Source: an uncultured Gemmatimonadales bacterium (GTDB taxonomy: Bacteria; Gemmatimonadota; Gemmatimonadetes; Longimicrobiales; RSA9). Taken from it: DNA of 64,000 bases. This document shows, piece by piece, positions 49,001 through 64,000 of this stretch (position 1 is its first letter; each line of letters opens with the position of its first letter). The DNA lies in NCBI GenBank assembly GCA_963783305.1, contig CAWAMW010000017.1:288001-352000 (forward strand), in the 5' to 3' direction. The notes beneath the pieces are model-generated. The model was not told the origin of the DNA. It saw only the letters and a list, made by a program, of their open reading frames with translations, and did not search any database. A program made the translations under genes and the position numbers.

Positions 49001-49798
49001 ATGTCAGACCGCACCGACTTCACCAACACCTACGCCGACCCGGAGCGGGCCGCTTCGTACGCCGGCGTCGACTTCACCGGCACCTACCACCTCGCCGTGC
49101 GCGACCTGCCGGACCTGATCGAGCGGCACGTGGGCGGGCGGGCGGCGCTGGACTTCGGGTGCGGGGCGGGTCGCTCGACGCGGCTGCTGAAGGCGCTCAG
49201 GTTCGAGGCGGTGGGGGTGGACGTGTCGCGGAGCATGCTGGAGCGGGCGCGGGCGCGGGATCCGGAGGGGCGCTACGTCCTCATCGCCGAGGAGGATCCC
49301 GACTCACTGGCGGGCGTGGTCCCGGCGGGCTCGCGGGACCTTGTCTTCTGCGCGTACCCGTTCGACAACATCCCGGGTCGGGCGAACCGGGCGCGGATCC
49401 TGGGGGCGCTGGGTCGTACGCTGAAGGAGGACGGCCGGGTGATCATCGTGGCGTCGTCCCCCGAGCTGTACCAGCACGAGTGGCTGTCGTTCACGACCGC
49501 GGCGTTCGAGGAGAACCGGCGGGCCGCGAGTGGCGACCCGGTGCGGATCGTCATGAAGGACGTCCCCGACGCGCGGCCCGTGCCCGACTTCCTCTGGACC
49601 GACGACGACTACCGGGTCATGGCCGAGGCCGCGGGGCTGCGGGTGCTGGAGACCGCGCGGCCGCTGGGTCGGCCGGACGACGGGTACGCGTGGGTCAGCG
49701 AGACGGCGGTGGCGCCGTGGGCGATCCACGTGCTGGGACGGCCTCACACCGCCGGTGTCGGCAGCCGACCGTCCACCAGGAAGTCCTCCCTCGGGTAG
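49001..49798 (+). CDS. Class I SAM-dependent methyltransferase
   Basis: ALDFGCGAGRSTR, GVDVS..ML. Confidence 0.88.
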   Translation: MSDRTDFTNTYADPERAASYAGVDFTGTYHLAVRDLPDLIERHVGGRAALDFGCGAGRSTRLLKALRFEAVGVDVSRSMLERARARDPEGRYVLIAEEDPDSLAGVVPAGSRDLVFCAYPFDNIPGRANRARILGALGRTLKEDGRVIIVASSPELYQHEWLSFTTAAFEENRRAASGDPVRIVMKDVPDARPVPDFLWTDDDYRVMAEAAGLRVLETARPLGRPDDGYAWVSETAVAPWAIHVLGRPHTAGVGSRPSTRKSSLG

Positions 49799-50523
49799 GC
49801 GTACGTCTCCCGCCGTCCATAGCCCCTGGAGGAGACCTCGACCCGCTCCCTCGTCGCGGCGCAGTGCCAGGTCTCGAACGACCGCGGGGCACGCCGCCCG
49901 AACGACGCCGGGTCCAGCACCGCGACGTTGACCCCGCCCTCCACGTCGCGGGCCGACCGGTAGCGGAACGCCTGCACCGCAGCGTCCCGCATGGCACCGC
50001 CCAGCGCCTGCGTGGCCGAGTAGCTCACGGGCGAGGCCAGCTCGCTGTCGTGCGCCGCGAACGGAGGCGCCGTGAGGTCGATCCCGCGCTCCGTGCGCAC
50101 GCGTGCGCGGAACGCCGTCAGGTCGACTTCCAGAACACCCAGCTCCGCCGCCGTGCCCTCCAGGAATACCAGCCGGTAGTACGCCACCTCGGCGAACACC
50201 GTCCGCAGCGCCTCGCCGCCGTACCAGATGCCGCGCTCCGTACGCGGTCCGAACCGGGAGCCGTGGCGGAGCGGCGGGTACCGGAAGGGGGTGAACAGCA
50301 GGTAGTGCATCCCGGGCGCGGCGCCCGGTCGATGGGCCGGAGCGGCCGGCGCGGGCGGCTTCGCGTCGTCGATCAGCCGCTCCAGCACCTCGTGCTCCGC
50401 GGCCGTGTCCACCAGCCGACGCGTCGCGACCTGGTGCTGGCTCTCCACCGCGCGCCACGGCTCCAGCCGCAGCGGCCGGAGCTCAGAGTCGCCCGCGCAG
50501 CGCGTCCAGATATCCGACGACAT
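49744..50523 (-). CDS. RES domain toxin (NAD+ phosphorylase family)
   Basis: WR.VE.QH, LL.TPFRYPP...GSRF, AEVAYYR, Y.SARD..GG.N. Confidence 0.9.
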   Translation of the reverse strand: MSSDIWTRCAGDSELRPLRLEPWRAVESQHQVATRRLVDTAAEHEVLERLIDDAKPPAPAAPAHRPGAAPGMHYLLFTPFRYPPLRHGSRFGPRTERGIWYGGEALRTVFAEVAYYRLVFLEGTAAELGVLEVDLTAFRARVRTERGIDLTAPPFAAHDSELASPVSYSATQALGGAMRDAAVQAFRYRSARDVEGGVNVAVLDPASFGRRAPRSFETWHCAATRERVEVSSRGYGRRETYAYPREDFLVDGRLPTPAV

Positions 50524-50857
50524 CCACCAGCCCCTCCACACGACGGATCCGCTCCCGCGGCACGCCCGCCACGTGCGCGTTCTCCGCGTTCAGCCACGCC
50601 CGCGCCTTCGACTCCTCTCCCCCAACCATGGCGTCCAGGCTCCGGAACAGCCGCAGGAAGAGCAGCGCCAGCTCGCCCTCCTTGCTCCCCGGGTCGATGG
50701 TCCGGGCCCCGCTCAGCCGCGAGATCGACGCCTCGCTCGTCCCCAGCACCGCCGACAGCTCGCGGTTGCGCATACCCAGCCGCCCGGCCGCCGAGAGGAC
50801 GGCCTTCGTCAGGACCTGGCCGGGCGCGGGCTGGGCCGCGTGAAGGGAGCGGTGCAT
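50483..50857 (-). CDS. Xre/MbcA/ParS-type antitoxin
   Basis: VLTKAV..AA..LG, LG.SEA..SR, LF.RL.RSLDA..GG, W...N. Confidence 0.88.
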   Translation of the reverse strand: MHRSLHAAQPAPGQVLTKAVLSAAGRLGMRNRELSAVLGTSEASISRLSGARTIDPGSKEGELALLFLRLFRSLDAMVGGEESKARAWLNAENAHVAGVPRERIRRVEGLVDVVGYLDALRGRL

Positions 50858-50922
50858 TGTACCTGAAAGATACCGACGGAATATTTCATGTGCAAGCCAA
50901 GGTCACCCGTATGGCTTCCCGT

Positions 50923-51162
50923 ATGGCCAAGATGATCCAGGTTCGGAACGTCCCTGACCCGCTCCACCGGCAGCTGGTGCGGCGAGCGAGGGCGCGAGGG
51001 CAGACGCTCACCGACTACGTGCAGGGGATCCTCGAGCGGGAGGTCGCCCGTCCGCTGGCGGAGGAGGTGTTCGAGCGGGTGGCTTCGCGCAGCTCCGTGC
51101 GCCTGGACCGGCCGGCGGCGGAGCTGCTGGCGGAGGAGCGCGGCTCGCGCCAGGCGTCGTGA
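50923..51162 (+). CDS. Ribbon-helix-helix antitoxin (FitA/VapB-like)
   Basis: MIQVRNVPD.LHR.L..RA...GQ.L.DY; overlaps the vapC start. Confidence 0.85.
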   Translation: MAKMIQVRNVPDPLHRQLVRRARARGQTLTDYVQGILEREVARPLAEEVFERVASRSSVRLDRPAAELLAEERGSRQAS

Positions 51163-51563
51163 AGCCGGTGGTGGTGGACGCGTCCGCCGTCGCCGAGTAC
51201 CTGCTGCGGACGGAGCGGGCCGGACCGATCGAAGCAGTCCTCCGCGACCCGGCGCACGACCTCTCCGTGCCCGCCCTGTGCGACGTGGAGGTCGCGTCCG
51301 TGCTCCGGCGCGCGATTCTCAGCGGGGCGATGGGACCCGAACGGGCGGGCCAGGCGACGGAGGACTACCGCGACCTCCCCCTGACCCGCCACGGCCACCT
51401 CGCCCTCATGGAGCGGATCCTGGAGCTCCGCGACGACTTCTCACCCTACGACGCCGCCTACGTCGCCCTCGCCGAGCGGCTGGGCGCGACGCTGCTGACC
51501 GGGGACCGGGCGCTCGGACGGGCGGTGGACCGGCACCTGGCACTGGAAGTCATGACGGCGTAG
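51159..51563 (+). CDS. vapC: PIN domain toxin
   Basis: VVDASAV, EV.S.LRR, YDAAYVALAE, LLT.D..L. Confidence 0.92.
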   Translation: MKPVVVDASAVAEYLLRTERAGPIEAVLRDPAHDLSVPALCDVEVASVLRRAILSGAMGPERAGQATEDYRDLPLTRHGHLALMERILELRDDFSPYDAAYVALAERLGATLLTGDRALGRAVDRHLALEVMTA

Positions 51564-52773
51564 CGACGACGACCTCGTCGCCGGGGCGCTCGCCGGCCTC
51601 CAGACCCTCCAGAAGCGACAGCAGTCCGGCGGCTTCCCAGGCCTGATTCCGGCGTTTTCGGGTGACCGGCAGAAGAACTCCGGCCTGCTGGAGGCTCTCC
51701 AGTCCCTGGTAAACCCGCGGCTTGGCTCGACCCGTTGCGGCCGCCGCCACCGGAGCCGTGATGATCGGGTGCGCGGGAAGGACGTCGATGATCGCCCAGG
51801 CGGCCGCATCGGACCGGGGCGCGCTCGGCAGCTTCCCCAGCGCCGACTTCCACTGGCTTGTGAGGTCAGCCACGGCCCGCAGGTATTGAGAGGCGAGGTT
51901 CGCGCTCGTGGCCGTCGCGGCGGCGAAATGATCGATCCAGCGGGCGACGTCATCCTCACGGTACGCCGTCAGGCCGGCGATGTAGCGATCCCTGTTGTTG
52001 GCCAGCACGACGCTGATCGGTGGCACGTACTCGGGTGCAATGCCGCGCCGGTTCAGCACGACGTGGATCAGCGCGCGGCCGGTTCGGCCGTTTCCGTCGT
52101 GAAAGGGGTGGATGGTCTCGAACTGCGCGTGGACAAGCGCCGCCTGTACCAGCGGTGGCAGGCGGTCGTCCTGCATGGCGCCGAAGAGGTCGTCCAGCAG
52201 ATCGGGCACGTGCTCCGGAGGCGGGGGCACGAAGTCGGCCCCGCACGGGGTGTAGTCGTTCCCGCCGATCCAGTTCTGCTCCTCCCTGATCCTGCCCGCG
52301 AGCCGCGGGTTGGTGCTGCCCTCCATCACACGACAATGAATCGCCTCGAGCTCCGTACGGCCGAACCGCGCCGCACCGGCCGCTTCGTCGATCGCCAGCC
52401 GCATCGCGTCGATGTTGGCGAGGATCTCTTCCGCCGTGGCGCCCGCCTTGCCACCGGTTTCCAGCTTCGCCTCCGCGCGCGCGAGCTTCCGCACGCCCAT
52501 CTGCATGCCCTCCACCTTCGAAGAGGCAATGGACTCGGTACGCAGAAGCAGCCGCGCGAGCGGTGCCAGCGCCGGGCGAGCACTCGCGTTGAGATCCCGC
52601 ACCGCCGCCTCGGCCTCCGATACCACTCCCGCCAGCTCGCCACCGAGCGTGAGATCCACCGCTGACAAGGGATCGGGGATGTACGCCTGGTATCGGCACG
52701 CACGCCGATACTTCCGCGGGGCCGGACTCCGCGGATCGTGCTCCCACGTCATTTCTACCCAGCGCCCGCCCAT
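51550..52773 (-). CDS. Fic family protein
   Basis: ES..SS..EG and HPFHDGNGRTGR Fic motif. Confidence 0.93.
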   Translation of the reverse strand: MGGRWVEMTWEHDPRSPAPRKYRRACRYQAYIPDPLSAVDLTLGGELAGVVSEAEAAVRDLNASARPALAPLARLLLRTESIASSKVEGMQMGVRKLARAEAKLETGGKAGATAEEILANIDAMRLAIDEAAGAARFGRTELEAIHCRVMEGSTNPRLAGRIREEQNWIGGNDYTPCGADFVPPPPEHVPDLLDDLFGAMQDDRLPPLVQAALVHAQFETIHPFHDGNGRTGRALIHVVLNRRGIAPEYVPPISVVLANNRDRYIAGLTAYREDDVARWIDHFAAATATSANLASQYLRAVADLTSQWKSALGKLPSAPRSDAAAWAIIDVLPAHPIITAPVAAAATGRAKPRVYQGLESLQQAGVLLPVTRKRRNQAWEAAGLLSLLEGLEAGERPGDEVVVATPS

Positions 52774-58537: not shown

Positions 58538-59865
58538 TCGGCTCCTGACGATACGTGGGACGGGACGCTAGTTACATATATGATGCGTCCGTAACTTTCC
58601 CCAAAGAAGACCTGCCTGTGAAAACGCACATCCGGAGGCAGTAAGCGTAGGCTCAAGGTCGATAAGAAAAAGATGAACGGACTACTGTCAATCATCGTGC
58701 TTATTAAAGGGCGGAGGTCCAGGCCGAAGTCTACCAGCCAATGGAAAGAGAACGCCGACGCTCCTGTATCACTTAGATATACAAGGTCGAGTAGATCCAA
58801 CATGAACTCGACTGTCTCCCGGCTCAGTTGTCATGCACGACAGGACTTAGTGCTTGCAATCCACTACAACATCACGCTCTTCCCGCAGCGTGTAGAGACC
58901 GACCGCCTGAACTCGACGCAATTGACCTACCCACAGCGACCTGAACTGAAGAAGATTGGCACTATACCAGAAGTAGAAGTATAGAACTACAGCTAGCTCA
59001 GAACGACAATACAGTGTAACAGATCGATCCGTACAAAGACCAACGAATTGTATTTTAGCAAGGATCAGCGGCGAAATCGACTGGTGTTAGGAACACCTCA
59101 CAGGTGATACTCAGACTCTTCACTCTAACATCAATCGGCTGAGAATTGAATTTTCGCGGAGCCGCAAACCTCCGGTACTGGTGCTTCACAACAGGGAAAG
59201 CAGCAAGAAAAAAGAAAGAAAAAGAAGAAAAAGGAAGCAAAGAAAGAAAGACGAAGAACAGCACGGAAGTGGAAAAGGGCAGCGAGGACTCAAGGTCGAT
59301 AGCTGCAAAAGGAGCTCAGTTCTGAATTGCCGCTTGTTAAGATCATGGCTTGCTTGTAGTTCTGATGTGAGCGGTTAAAAAGCTGCTGAATAGACCGGTA
59401 TAGATTCTTGTAAGGATTACCATTGGGTCCACGGTTATAGCATTCTCGAACCTTCGACATTCCCGGTCCGTCTTTGCTAAGATCCTCCTTAACTGTCTAA
59501 CAACTCTTTCTTCTCGACTTCACTGAAAGACGCCGAGCTGACGAGCAAGATCTCAGTTCTGAAATTCAAACCTGATGTCGACGAAGACTTTGGGTGTCCG
59601 AAGAGTCCACTCCCAGTGGATCAGGTTGTCCGAGTCGTCACTGCGAAGAAAGTTCTGTATTACGTTGGGTGGGCTGAACCGAGCGAGATAGCAATAAGGT
59701 CTGCTGGCCTGATTTCATTCTCTATTATCCAGCGGTACTGTACTTTGACTGCGGGTTAGCGGTAAACAGCTCTGCGATCTCCTTCTGACTAATGTTTCCC
59801 AACTAGAGAGGTATTCTGAGTCCACCATACCGTTGAAACCAGTGAGTGGGAATTTCTGATTCCAT
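58534..59865 (-). pseudogene. Multiply frameshifted hypothetical protein gene (about 440 codons)
   Basis: Protein-like fragments in shifting frames (YCYLARFSPPNVIQNFLRSDDSDNLIHWEWTL; QPIDVRVKSLSITCE); ATG at 59865. Confidence 0.5.
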
Positions 59866-59869
59866 GGCC

Positions 59870-59982
59870 CGCTAACGCCACTTCGGAGGCTGCAGGCCAA
59901 CCAGCGCCGAACAGCTCGCTCGACTACTAATCAAACAGCGGCTTCGCGCCCGCTCGTTCTGCCTGGATTCCGTCCGTTATGC
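59870..59982 (-). other. attC-like recombination site
   Basis: Minus strand GCATAAC ... GTTAGCG, 113 bp, lying between a stop codon and the next ATG; L boxes imperfect. Confidence 0.4.
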
Positions 59983-59998
59983 CAGAGCATGACAGCTC

Positions 59999-61234
59999 TC
60001 AGTACCCCTGCGCCGCAAGCATCGAGCTACGAGTCCCGCAACTCGTCCCCGAAGGTAATGCGCCTGTTCCTTCGTTGCATTGCCATCTAGACGGTGCGTC
60101 TCACTGTTGAGCAAATCGAACAACTCAATGGCTGCCTCAGGTCGGCTTCAAAGAACTTTGCGATTTCGGGTCCCGCTTGGTCCGAAAGATGAAGCGAAGG
60201 CGCGCGCGGCGCGTGGGTTTCCGTTGTGCATGTCGTCAGGCGTTACAACGGGGAGGAGTTCCCTGTCCGGAGAGAGTTGGTGCATCAGGTGCGTGACGAG
60301 CTCACGAAACGATACCAGCGCGTGCTTTTGCCAATCCGTGCCGCCACGCGCGATTGCCTCCGACCCTCCTCGGTACATCACAGCAAGTTCGTTCGACAAA
60401 CCGCAAGGCGAGCCTCGAAGGAGTCGACGACAGCGGTAAGCTGCTCTTCCACCTCCTCGTCGGCATCGACGACTGACATATCGGCGAGCGACACGGACGC
60501 GCTGAGTCTCGTGGCAGCGTAAAGCTCGAGTCCGGGCGCACGGATTAGATCAATCGCCGTGTTTGCTACGAGGGAGTCACTCGCGCGGAACGATTCCATG
60601 ATACTTGTCGACGCCGATGATAGCCGTACCACGCCGCTGTGCAGTTCCGTTAGATACGACGCTGAAACGTTCGGGAGAAATGCCGCCGTATTCACTGACA
60701 GCGCCTGCGCAGTGGCCCCCAGCTGATATCGTGACTCGAGCCAGATAAGCGCGTTTGCAGACGCGAAATATGGCTCCGTGGCGAAGCTGATGCGCGAGAG
60801 CGAGTCAGACATACCCACTCGAAACGACGCATTGGCCAAAAAGGAGGCAATTGGCGGAGCCTCAAAGTCTCGAAGTGCGTTCACGGAGACACTGCCGAGG
60901 CGTTCGGCTAAGCCCGTCCCGGAGACCAAGGCGCTAACGGCTCCCGAGTACGGGGCAAGTGTCGCAAGAGCCGAAATAGACGACACATCCGTATGTAGGG
61001 CTGTAAGCGAACTGATTGCGGTGTTCGCATACTGCACTGACAGGGGTGTATGGGAGCCCAACACCGTGCCTGGCGTGAGCATCGTGTGCGCGAGGCTACC
61101 GGCGGAGATACGCGAGTTCGCGCCAGCATCGGATTAGTATGTGCGAGCGCTGCGGCAGGCGAGCTAAGTGCACCAAACAGTCCGGTGTCGACGAGCAAAG
61201 GGTTGCGAAGGATGTAGTCCCGAGGATCAGTCAT
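59999..61234 (-). pseudogene. pPIWI-associating nuclease-like (HEPN-like) C-terminal domain protein, frameshifted
   Basis: Low-complexity Ser/Ala N-terminus, then Y.G..EA....D..KH...S.REL..H....L.P ... G.PTRRARL ... LLNSETH across frames. Confidence 0.6.
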
Positions 61235-61391
61235 TTGTCAGATCGGTAAGAGGGGATATATGGCCGCCGTTATCCAGCATCACCACCTTGTACCGCGCTT
61301 ACCACTTCCCCCTATCGACCAGCGCCACGACCCCCGGCACCTCAAGCGCGGTCCAGCTCGTTGTGGACTTTCCTCCACCCGACGGTCTCCA

Positions 61392-62099
61392 CTAAACAAA
61401 TCCCCGATCACCTGTCCAGTCGGTCGACGGAATGCCGTCTGCAACGCCACGAGCCTCTAGGAGATAATGCGGAGACAGCACCGCGTACCGCCAAAAGACA
61501 AGATCCACGACCCGCACTAGATCTCCCGACGTTGCCGCAACATCGCCGCAGAGTTCCTGCACCCCTACACCGAACGCTTCGGCTAGTCGAGCCACGTGTC
61601 GGTCCGGCTTGGCCACATCAAGGCTCAAGTTCTTTGCGAAGTGGAAGGAGGTCGCTCGCCCCAAATAGGGAAAGGTCAATAGGAATTCGGGTCCCTCTGC
61701 ACCTAAACGACATTTGAATGCTGCGGCCCCCATTTCAGCGAGACGACTGGCAAAGACGGCGATGGCGTCAATTTTCCCAGCGTGGCCGAAATGATCGAGC
61801 GCCTGCCGTTTACACTCTTTGGACGACTGGGCAATACACTTAGCCGATCTCCAGTCACAAAACGCCCTGCTGATTTCCGGAAAAATTGAAGCAACGACCA
61901 CCTCCTTCATACCAGACCCCAGCACGACCCAAGCGTGCTCACGTAGGAGATCCGACTCAGTACAGTCCGATAGGTCCACGGTCCGAATCCATTCCATCTC
62001 GTCGCCGTATCCAGAAGCGACCACGACCCGCTTCGAACGGGTATATAGTTCTGTCACTGCCTCCAACATGAACGGATAGAGAGCCATGGATCGCGTCAA
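61392..62099 (-). CDS. HhH DNA glycosylase-like protein (Cap11/OGG-like)
   Basis: LRE.AWVVL.SG, F.H.GK..AI, L..FPYLG..T..H.AKNL..DVAKPDRH, VD.V.WRY; TTG start overlaps the upstream stop. Confidence 0.75.
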   Translation of the reverse strand: MTRSMALYPFMLEAVTELYTRSKRVVVASGYGDEMEWIRTVDLSDCTESDLLREHAWVVLGSGMKEVVVASIFPEISRAFCDWRSAKCIAQSSKECKRQALDHFGHAGKIDAIAVFASRLAEMGAAAFKCRLGAEGPEFLLTFPYLGRATSFHFAKNLSLDVAKPDRHVARLAEAFGVGVQELCGDVAATSGDLVRVVDLVFWRYAVLSPHYLLEARGVADGIPSTDWTGDRGFV

Positions 62100-62683
62100 G
62101 TCGACCTTTTCTGTGCGCCGGTGTTCAATTCCTGTCGAATGAAGCGGAGCCGTAAGATCCATTCGGGTGTCCACAAATACTCCTCGCGGATGCGGCTAAG
62201 AGCGACCTTACGGAGATGCCTCGCCTTCAATCTAGCAAAGAGATCCTCCGGTATGGCGGGCGTGCTACTTCCTACTTCACGATAAAGTGCCGCCAACTGA
62301 TTCCTCGATACAGCATCCCAACCCTTTTCCTGGTCACGGCGGGTCCGGTACTCGCTTGCCAACCCCGCCCAGCGGCGGCACGCCTCGCCATGACGCGCCT
62401 TTTTCCCAGGCCAATCGAACAGCAGAACTATGAGCGAGAAGGTGAAAGCGACCACTGACCCACCCGCCAGCACCGATCTTCCTTGCTGCACAGAAAGATC
62501 AAAGAGGCTGAATAGCTCGCCTCCACTGAAAGCCGTAACCGTGAAGAGAACGGAGACAACAATCAACGCACTCCCAGAGAGAACTTCAAGCCTTCGATAG
62601 CGATCTCGCAGAGCAGCGTGCATCGAAGCCATTTGCTTCGTAAGCCGGTATTGGCGCGCAGTTTCACCCTCGGGGACAGTCAT
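62096..62683 (-). CDS. 2TM (SLATT-like) CBASS effector
   Basis: H..LRDRY, two TM helices, DW......H, P.IPE..F..LK..HL.KV; ATGA overlap with the cyclase. Confidence 0.75.
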   Translation of the reverse strand: MTVPEGETARQYRLTKQMASMHAALRDRYRRLEVLSGSALIVVSVLFTVTAFSGGELFSLFDLSVQQGRSVLAGGSVVAFTFSLIVLLFDWPGKKARHGEACRRWAGLASEYRTRRDQEKGWDAVSRNQLAALYREVGSSTPAIPEDLFARLKARHLRKVALSRIREEYLWTPEWILRLRFIRQELNTGAQKRST

Positions 62684-63604
62684 GAGCGCTCCAATGAAAT
62701 CTTTGCCCTCCATTGGGCAATAGTTGCGGCTGTTGAAAGTTGAGTGTGGATAGATCGGAGCAGCGCGGCCACGCGCCTTCGTTCGTCGCTCCCAGGCCCT
62801 CTGAGCTCTGCGTCGACGACGGCCTACTGTCCGATAACGTCAGTGATTGGTCGGAGGACCCGCTCGCTGGAATGCTGAAGCACATGAAGGACTACGTCCC
62901 GCACGCTGCGATCACCCTTATAGCCCGCGGCCGAATCGACCGCTAGCGCCTCTATGTGATATCCCGACAGCCGCCTCTGCTTCGGGAGACCTTCATTTAT
63001 GGCCTTGATCACTTTCACGGCTGGCACGAGAACCCCGCCGGTCTGATTGTTGGCTGCAGTCAAGCGCTCGCGAAAGAGCCGAGGCTTCGATACACGCCAG
63101 CCCCCACTTTCTGCATCAGGAACAGCTACCGTGTCCCCCTGCCGTAATGCCGGCAGCAACTGCACTTCCGTGCCGTCCCGGTAGGTGACCGTAACTGCCA
63201 TATTTCCGCGCGAGATGGTGTCGACGTCTCCGAGGTTAAGATTGACGCGGACCTGCCGTTCCAAAGATTCCAGCATTCTCTTTCCCAGTGGCGGCACCGA
63301 CAGCCGAAGCATCGAGCACAACGAGTGCATTGATGTCGCTAATCCCGTCGACGGCTGTGTGCTTCGCCACCGACCCTCCGAGCAGTAGCGAATCGATCTC
63401 GAGGTCCCCTAGTGACTGCTTGATTTCCTCGAGCCGTTTCCTAACCCTGTCATGATCACGATCGTTGAACTTCGCTAATTCTTCTCCCAGGTATTGGTTC
63501 GTTTCCGCTTGGAGGCGACGCTGCTCGGCCTGCCGGGCCCGCTCCACCTTCAATCGGGTGCTTTCACTAGGTGTGCCACTGAACCTGCTGCCGCCGCCCC
63601 CCAT
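62680..63604 (-). CDS. CD-NTase (CBASS oligonucleotide cyclase); one frameshift near 63280 and an in-frame TAG at 62824 in this sequence
   Basis: MGGGGS start, GGSVAKHT.VDG.SD, EVQLLPA, VP.VK..K, LSGYHIE; the frame stays open after the TAG to a TGA overlapping the next ATG. Confidence 0.8.
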
Positions 63605-63605
63605 A

Positions 63606-64000
63606 TCATCCTCCTTCCTGCAGTTCAGGTATTTTTGTGGTCATATGCCTGTACGCAGCGGCCAAACGCTCCTTCACAAATGGCTGGAACATGTCGAACT
63701 GTTCGCCATCAGTGTCGACCCACTGTTCCAGTGAGGCGGCCAGATTCAGTAACGCCTGTACATTGTGTAAGTTGGCCAACATCTCGTTGACGGTCTTGCC
63801 CACAAGCCCGAACTCTTCCCGGAGAATCCCATGACATTCTCTGCTCACGGCCACCCCTTTGTGATACGAGTAGCGGAGCCAAGACACGCCATCAAAGATT
63901 TCGGCACCAGCGAAGAAATACAGTGGGGTCAATAGGGGGTCTAATCCTCCCCATATATGAATCGGAGAATCTATTCCCGCGTCGTCCAAACCCCTTCGGA
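63606..64000 (-). CDS. TGT (tRNA-guanine transglycosylase)-like protein, Cap10-like; 5' part outside the window
   Basis: PIHIWGGLDP...LYFFAGAEIFDG.SW.RY; stop immediately upstream of the cyclase start. Confidence 0.7.
   Translation of the reverse strand, partial: RRGLDDAGIDSPIHIWGGLDPLLTPLYFFAGAEIFDGVSWLRYSYHKGVAVSRECHGILREEFGLVGKTVNEMLANLHNVQALLNLAASLEQWVDTDGEQFDMFQPFVKERLAAAYRHMTTKIPELQEGG

Follow-up and report, generated by a model that had tools for sequence, protein, structure and literature searches.

The closest described relative of the locus reported here is a cyclic oligonucleotide-based antiphage signaling system (CBASS) of type IV in a Rhizobiales operon, which was found to be defensive and for which the chemistry of Cap9 and Cap10 has been solved, according to the part of that report used here (Wassarman, 10.1101/2025.04.06.647259). 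We analyzed a 64,000-nucleotide stretch of an uncultured Gemmatimonadales bacterium (the window, G000:C17:288001-352000; the contig continues 192 kb) and found at its end an operon that almost certainly belongs to type IV CBASS. We are inclined to regard it as a canonical five-gene system, intact in vivo, in a defence island of low guanine-plus-cytosine (GC) content, most of the breaks in its assembled sequence likely being consensus errors. The class and its deazaguanylation chemistry are already published (Wassarman 2025), and the locus adds one further type IV CBASS.

In the Rhizobiales operon, as the same part of the report describes (10.1101/2025.04.06.647259), Cap9 joins 7-carboxy-7-deazaguanine (CDG) to Gly2 of the cyclase, adding 176 Da, and Cap10 binds the tagged tail in a complex that is inactive. 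Defence needs Cap9, Cap10, the tail and the DxD motif of the cyclase; Cap11 is dispensable, and its loss raises toxicity. The authors propose that the tagged cyclase is then passed on to a target. Cap11 is optional in type IV CBASS, being present in about one third of systems. Membrane damage by two-transmembrane (2TM) effectors is general CBASS knowledge, taken here from a passage on type I systems (PMC10002423).

Gene content and comparison with described systems

Positions 61392-64000 of the window hold four minus-strand genes, encoding Cap10 (TGT-like), a CD-NTase, a SLATT-like 2TM effector and Cap11 (OGG-like). Past the window edge lie the 5' part of cap10 and cap9, followed by a type IIG restriction-modification gene and a truncated SoFic-like gene. 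The full order is cap9-cap10-CD-NTase-2TM-cap11, five genes in 3.85 kb, all of which match PADLOC models. Positions outside the window are given in two coordinate systems, C17 and L001, as in the last line below.

61392..62099, minus strand: cap11, OGG-like glycosylase, open frame (start TTG 62099 or ATG 62090); PADLOC OGG, E 6.2e-69
62096..62683, minus strand: 2TM effector, SLATT-like, open frame of 195 aa; PADLOC 2TM effector, E 2.8e-26
62680..63604, minus strand: CD-NTase, CdnD-like; PADLOC PDLC00790, NF041117, PDB 9ntn_G
63606..64000, minus strand: 3' part of cap10, TGT-like (gene start at C17 352681, outside the window); PADLOC TGT
C17 353270-352675 (L001 8270-7675), minus strand, wholly outside the window: cap9, QueC-like N-terminal deazaguanylase; PADLOC QueC, E 1.3e-41

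An earlier note, made from the sequence of the window, had read this end as four tightly coupled genes of a type IV CBASS in a lower-GC island and had predicted a queC-like gene just past position 64000. These claims were borne out, and none of the outcomes that the note had named as refuting it came about. A 1-bp gap separates the cap10 TGA (63608-63606) from the cyclase ATG (63604), the cyclase and 2TM genes share an ATGA overlap (62683-62680), and the 2TM and cap11 genes a TTGA overlap (62099-62096), with the ATG at 62090 as a possible alternative cap11 start; beyond the edge, cap9 and cap10 overlap by 7 bp. GC content is 0.56-0.58 at 61001-64000 against 0.687 for the whole contig, and the queC-like gene, cap9, lies 675-1270 bases beyond the edge. 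The PADLOC run that the note had suggested matched the TGT, Cyclase, 2TM effector and OGG models. Its reading of TGT-like, nucleotidyltransferase, 2TM and HhH-glycosylase motifs thus stood at the level of PADLOC for all four genes, but the HhH part found no Pfam match; cap11 has no match in Pfam or NCBIfam. The cyclase is indeed in pieces, as the note had said, but it is not the sole broken gene, as cap9 and cap10 are broken too. Nor is the system, which the note took to be hidden from ORF callers, hidden from profile searches: each fragment matches PADLOC alone, and public data already contain called proteins for the 2TM gene and for the 122-aa fragment of the cyclase.

The two cyclase pieces match PADLOC PDLC00790 with E 6.8e-22 and 5.2e-44, covering model positions 1-112 and 114-303 of 310. 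For both, the sole PDB match is the type IV CdnD 9ntn_G (E 1.9e-9 and 1.8e-34), while Pfam SMODS is matched below threshold only. The N-terminus, MGGGGS, holds Gly2 and fits the published tail M(G/S)G(G/S)GG (given in the part of the Rhizobiales report used here) at the first five of its six positions; homologues vary likewise.

Cap10 matches PADLOC TGT with E 6.5e-27 for the part within the window and 5.4e-58 with the extended locus. By sequence, its sole PDB match is the Cap10 chain 9ntn_A (E 2.9e-33), and in the alignment to that chain the counterparts of D73, S74, D122, K154, H226 and D248 are all identical. Cap9 matches the Cap9 chain 9nto_B with E 2.2e-27 but canonical QueC with only 4.4e-7, and the Cap9 piece after the break scores 65.9 bits against a cut-off of 150.3 for the QueC equivalog TIGR00364. 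The 2TM protein has two hydrophobic segments, starting near residues 31 and 71, and matches NCBIfam SLATT_4 under the cut-off (E 4.3e-7).

The gene set is the same as that of the Rhizobiales system (CdnD, Cap9, Cap10, Cap11; PDB 9NTN, 9NTO; 10.1101/2025.04.06.647259, in the part used), whose Cap9, Cap10 and CdnD are the best PDB matches here. The base-reading and catalytic residues of Cap10 and the glycine tail of the cyclase, as that part gives them, are present here too. The copy here, known from its genes alone, differs in having three frameshifts, a stop and DxN. Cap9 proteins form cluster 9 of PF06508, as described in part of PMC13329287, and the copy here shares with that cluster a length of about 185-200 aa, an RN motif, a YxDCxxxF core, a four-cysteine zinc site and a CD-NTase in the operon. 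The Y/FxQ(x)5E motif of cluster 9 is YxH(x)5E here, also in a second version of the locus (see below); Arg replaces the His of H(x)4YxDC, and Leu the Phe of PF(x)4K.

Two other kinds of defence system share parts of this architecture, going by the portions of the sources used. Thoeris operons with cap9/cap10/cap11 (10.64898/2025.12.03.692087) carry the same ancillary trio, for which an engagement of the signalling enzyme like that in type IV CBASS is modelled, but their signalling protein is a TIR protein instead of a CD-NTase. QatABCD (PMC13279940; QatC in PMC13329287) likewise uses a QueC-family enzyme in anti-phage defence, whereas its gene set (ATPase, QatB, QatC, TatD-like nuclease) differs from the operon here; no Qat model of PADLOC matched at the locus.

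Breaks in the assembled operon and their explanation

As assembled, the operon carries three frameshifts (in cap9, cap10 and the cyclase gene), a TAG stop and a DxN motif, and judged from these it would be unable to work. Breaks were mapped by frameshift-aware profile alignment, which in leave-one-out controls called five events among 122 homologous genes, each of them at the end of an alignment; rows that were partial or split had been dropped from the profiles (cap9 L004, L009, L021; cap10 L007, L008, L012, L030; cap11 L009). In cap9, one base is missing near C17 353188, within SGGxDS (the SxGxDS pyrophosphate loop), and cap10 has a -1 frameshift near C17 352518. The cyclase gene has one extra base (+1), which alignments place anywhere in 63304-63274 and which may lie in the GGGAAAG run at 63287-63281. 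Its second catalytic Asp is Asn as assembled (63331-63329), whereas Asp is found in 67 of 67 homologues, and an in-frame TAG stands at 62826-62824. No break was found in the 2TM and cap11 genes. All 27 homologous cyclases from other genomes are single open frames, and protein matches to the cyclase are full-length in 40 of 42 cases, the exceptions being P0003 and one piece of 180 aa from a short contig. Other assemblies also have breaks, as seen from the split cap10 in L007 and the short cap9 open reading frame (ORF) in L004.

Frameshifts occur in the operon at 0.78/kb, as compared to at most 0.04/kb in core genes (at most 5 frameshifts in 138.5 kb, 126 genes), and the probability of three frameshifts in the 3.85-kb operon at the core rate is 4e-4. 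For this baseline, 241 candidate ORFs were taken, 200 had matches and 126 were kept (at least 55% identity, at most 700 aa, one per site); 19 genes had events, and 11 events (5 frameshifts and 6 stops) passed the flank filter. The baseline is noisy and the core rate an upper bound, because several of the events are probably over-long starts or antisense shadows. We also tried low ORF cover of low-GC patches as a genome-wide gauge of error and rejected it: among 14 patches, two of low cover were rRNA operons and others resembled arrays of small cassettes.

Neighbouring genes of the island hold 21 further frameshifts, 15 in the type IIG gene (L001 8498-11865, C17 353,498-356,865) and 6 in a nuclease-domain gene on the other side of the operon:

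60002..61234, minus strand: gene with a pPIWI-associated nuclease domain (PF18165), a neighbour outside the system; as assembled, six deletions of one base each

The nuclease-domain gene is 86% identical to an intact relative and has no in-frame stop. In the type IIG gene, all 15 frameshifts fall in a lower-GC middle of 1.13 kb and none in the other 2.25 kb, a clustering with a chance of 7e-8 under uniformity for a segment that was chosen after the fact, and these fifteen indels come without any aligned stop. That middle is likely the target-recognition region and may represent mixed alleles collapsed into one sequence.

A second version of the locus is available as public protein fragments (P0003, P0045, P0048 and P0051), which came from protein searches and which we infer to lie on one contig, the longest contig of these fragments being 7,474 nt. 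It is 91-99% identical to the locus over the aligned protein parts, residue differences from the outgroup fall about equally on both versions, and it has at least five frameshifts of its own. Six lesions could be checked against it: the cap9 -1, the cyclase DxN, the TAG, two -1 breaks of the nuclease-domain gene and the cyclase +1. Five of the six are absent from the second version: P0045 reads through the cap9 break, with SGGxDS in frame, P0051 reads through the two nuclease-gene breaks, and P0048 has DxD. With five of six private, the lesions are as expected if both versions are noisy readings of one largely intact sequence.

Several observations weigh against an intact operon. The cyclase +1 is common to both versions, P0048 ending in the same off-frame tail as the 122-aa fragment of the window and P0003 beginning just past the break. 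P0003 has no stop at the TAG site, but its frame shifts there, so that this site is not shown to be clean; the six checkable lesions do not include the cap10 break. The two versions need not be independent, as both may derive from one set of reads or one chemistry. Cap9 differs at 3 of 22 invariant columns and at 8 of 34 near-invariant ones, against maxima of 1 and 5 among 23 homologues (leave-one-out), and one of these departures, a Gln-to-His change, is common to the second version. The nuclease-domain gene has 30 private changes as compared to 16 in its nearest relative, and the types of break differ between neighbours, being mostly insertions in the restriction-modification gene and deletions in the nuclease-domain gene.

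The shared cyclase +1 could be a systematic miscall or a real lesion, and the main competitor of the intact operon builds on the latter: one real, fixed +1 frameshift in the G/A run of the cyclase would switch the system off, and the other breaks would be read noise. This is possible, but we hold it to be clearly less probable than an intact operon. It would account for the +1 being the only checkable lesion found in both versions and for the distance between the catalytic motif and the conserved motif after it, which is exactly one base too long in the cyclase gene. Long-read chemistries err systematically in short homopolymer runs, however, and both versions look like noisy long-read consensus, while the single open frames of all 27 homologous cyclases also speak against a real frameshift. 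Since toxicity in the model system rose when cap9 or cap11 was lost, as stated in the part of its report used here, loss of the cyclase would be a plausible escape. The same +1 might instead be a reversible switch, through slipped-strand phase variation or +1 frameshifting by the ribosome, that controls the amount of cyclase and keeps a toxic type IV enzyme off in most cells. It is the sole reproducible break and lies at or close to a short G/A run, shortly after the catalytic motif and within the N-terminal half of the cyclase; yet the run is only 3+3 bases, and no homologue is broken here, neither in the 27 loci nor among the 40 of 42 full-length protein matches. With all 27 homologous cyclases in single frames and no paper found in a literature search combining CBASS, frameshift, phase variation and CD-NTase, such a switch is without support or, in that search, precedent, and we consider it very improbable.

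Decay of the whole island, with both versions as real sister alleles that each carry inactivating mutations of their own, is rather improbable as well. The excess of substitutions at invariant Cap9 columns and the twofold excess of private changes in the nuclease-domain gene would fit decay, as would the truncated Fic gene and the relic of the restriction-modification gene end in the same island, and another accessory patch (C12:1-6.7 kb) is likewise fragmented. But alleles about 91-99% alike at the protein level would share most old lesions, and five of the six checkable ones are private. Nor does clock-like decay fit the fifteen indels, which lack an aligned stop and stay within a third of a single gene. 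The 2TM and cap11 genes are unbroken, and conserved-column changes in Cap10, the cyclase, the 2TM protein and Cap11 stay inside the range of their homologues (leave-one-out). The reading that the locus is no CBASS, and instead a cluster for nucleic-acid modification of the queuosine or dpd type with a nucleotidyltransferase as chance neighbour, has next to no probability. The absence of another QueC from the genome, which makes Cap9 its only full QueC-family gene, is in its favour, but it is essentially refuted by the affinity of Cap9 (E 2e-27 to 9NTO against 4e-7 to canonical QueC; 66 bits against a QueC cut-off of 150), by the separate housekeeping tgt and queA, which lie on another contig than the operon, and by the type IV glycine tail and coupled junctions of the cyclase.

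Island structure and distribution

The operon is bracketed by a direct repeat, formed by the type IIG gene end (L001 8534-8590) and a short copy of it:

61293..61349, minus strand: degenerate copy of the type IIG gene's 3' end (57 nt, 81%); blastn E 3.9e-6

At the protein level the copy scores 58, against a best of 43 in 200 shuffles. The truncated Fic gene also stands between repeats, its upstream region recurring with 73% identity on the other side (L001 12031-12089 and 13086-13144). These arrangements suggest that recombination between conserved gene ends assembled the island. A promoter scan gave no sigma-70 site and terminators at chance level, and within 20 kb around the island there is no tRNA and no Rfam match.

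On the 3' side of the nuclease-domain gene, an imperfect hairpin at 59870-59990 (fold -21.8 kcal/mol, no shuffle control) has ends that we take to be integron attC-like; no integron integrase was found above the cut-off. Positions 58600-59900, about 1.3 kb with GC 0.48-0.60 and short ORFs only, are probably another broken island gene. Farther away, 49744-52773 holds a RES-domain-like/antitoxin pair, a PIN-like toxin-antitoxin pair and a Fic-family gene, labels that come from reading the translations without a scan. Other low-GC runs of short ORFs occur at C15:291,000-304,000 (L132), C15:355-361 kb (L133) and C12:1-6.7 kb (L130). L132 looks like a cassette array, with a recurring repeat between ORFs and a tyrosine recombinase (C15:291,714-292,523) under the IntI cut-off, and L130 holds a fragmented LmuB/PDC-M68B-like gene.

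The distribution of the system was evaluated in 80 loci (L004-L083) fetched with Cap11 from GTDB genomes, 27 of which carry the cyclase. In 25 of these 27, the cap9-cap10-cyclase-cap11 ORFs were all recovered in the same order, and the 2TM family found here is present in 23. None of the loci L004-L083 has the nuclease-domain gene beside the operon. Closer to the host, Cap10 was found in 2 of 401 phylum genomes (this locus and G273), and the OGG (Cap11) model gave no strong match in 200 relatives, only one weak match of 39 positions; some or all of four unpublished genomes (G020, G021, G024 and G051) were among those covered by both scans. In the six same-genus genomes, core genes of the flanks were matched in all six and operon DNA in none, and a metagenome scan with the 2TM protein gave 253 pattern matches with no relative among them. 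The system is sporadic in the host's own group.

G273 was considered as a second CBASS and rejected, as it appears instead to hold the TIR version, apparently a Thoeris operon with cap9/10/11. Its locus (G273:C14:136001-150000; L139 4200-8200) has, next to a patatin-like gene, genes for a TIR-TGT fusion and for OGG-like, QueC-like and glycine-tailed TIR-like proteins, named from ORF translations with no profile scan.

Predicted mechanism and supply of the deazaguanine

An intact copy would presumably work as the published system does. Cap9 would use ATP to join CDG to the freed N-terminal Gly of the cyclase, and Cap10 would then bind the tagged tail and hold the cyclase inactive, both steps being carried over from the model system. 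On infection, Cap10 might transfer the tagged cyclase to a target, whereupon the cyclase would make a cyclic oligonucleotide and the 2TM protein would damage the membrane and so abort the infection; these steps are proposals even for the model system, as is the role of Cap11, which may reverse the link.

The route to CDG runs through FolE, QueD and QueE, as given in part of PMC13329287. The host genome carries FolE, three PTPS/QueD-family genes and a QueE-like gene (292 bits against a cut-off of 300; C2:612565-613200), and therefore it would be expected to supply CDG. It also carries tgt and queA, as noted above, and in the whole genome there is no canonical QueC and no QueF. Across the host family, a QueE-like gene is found in 70 of 73 genomes and canonical QueC in none of the 73, tallies that include the same four unpublished genomes; a literature search on this point returned only an unrelated drinking-water study.

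This is the only locus with both Cap10 and the cyclase found among the 401 sampled phylum genomes, in a class whose chemistry is already solved, and it gives no help toward the target that receives the tagged cyclase. It also carries a caution, that accessory islands of a 96%-complete assembly can hold indels at 20 or more times the core-gene rate and so mimic pseudogenes. The retention of QueE without canonical QueC across the host family is the more curious side result: with QueE but no QueC or QueF in the host, Cap9 would be its only known consumer of CDG.

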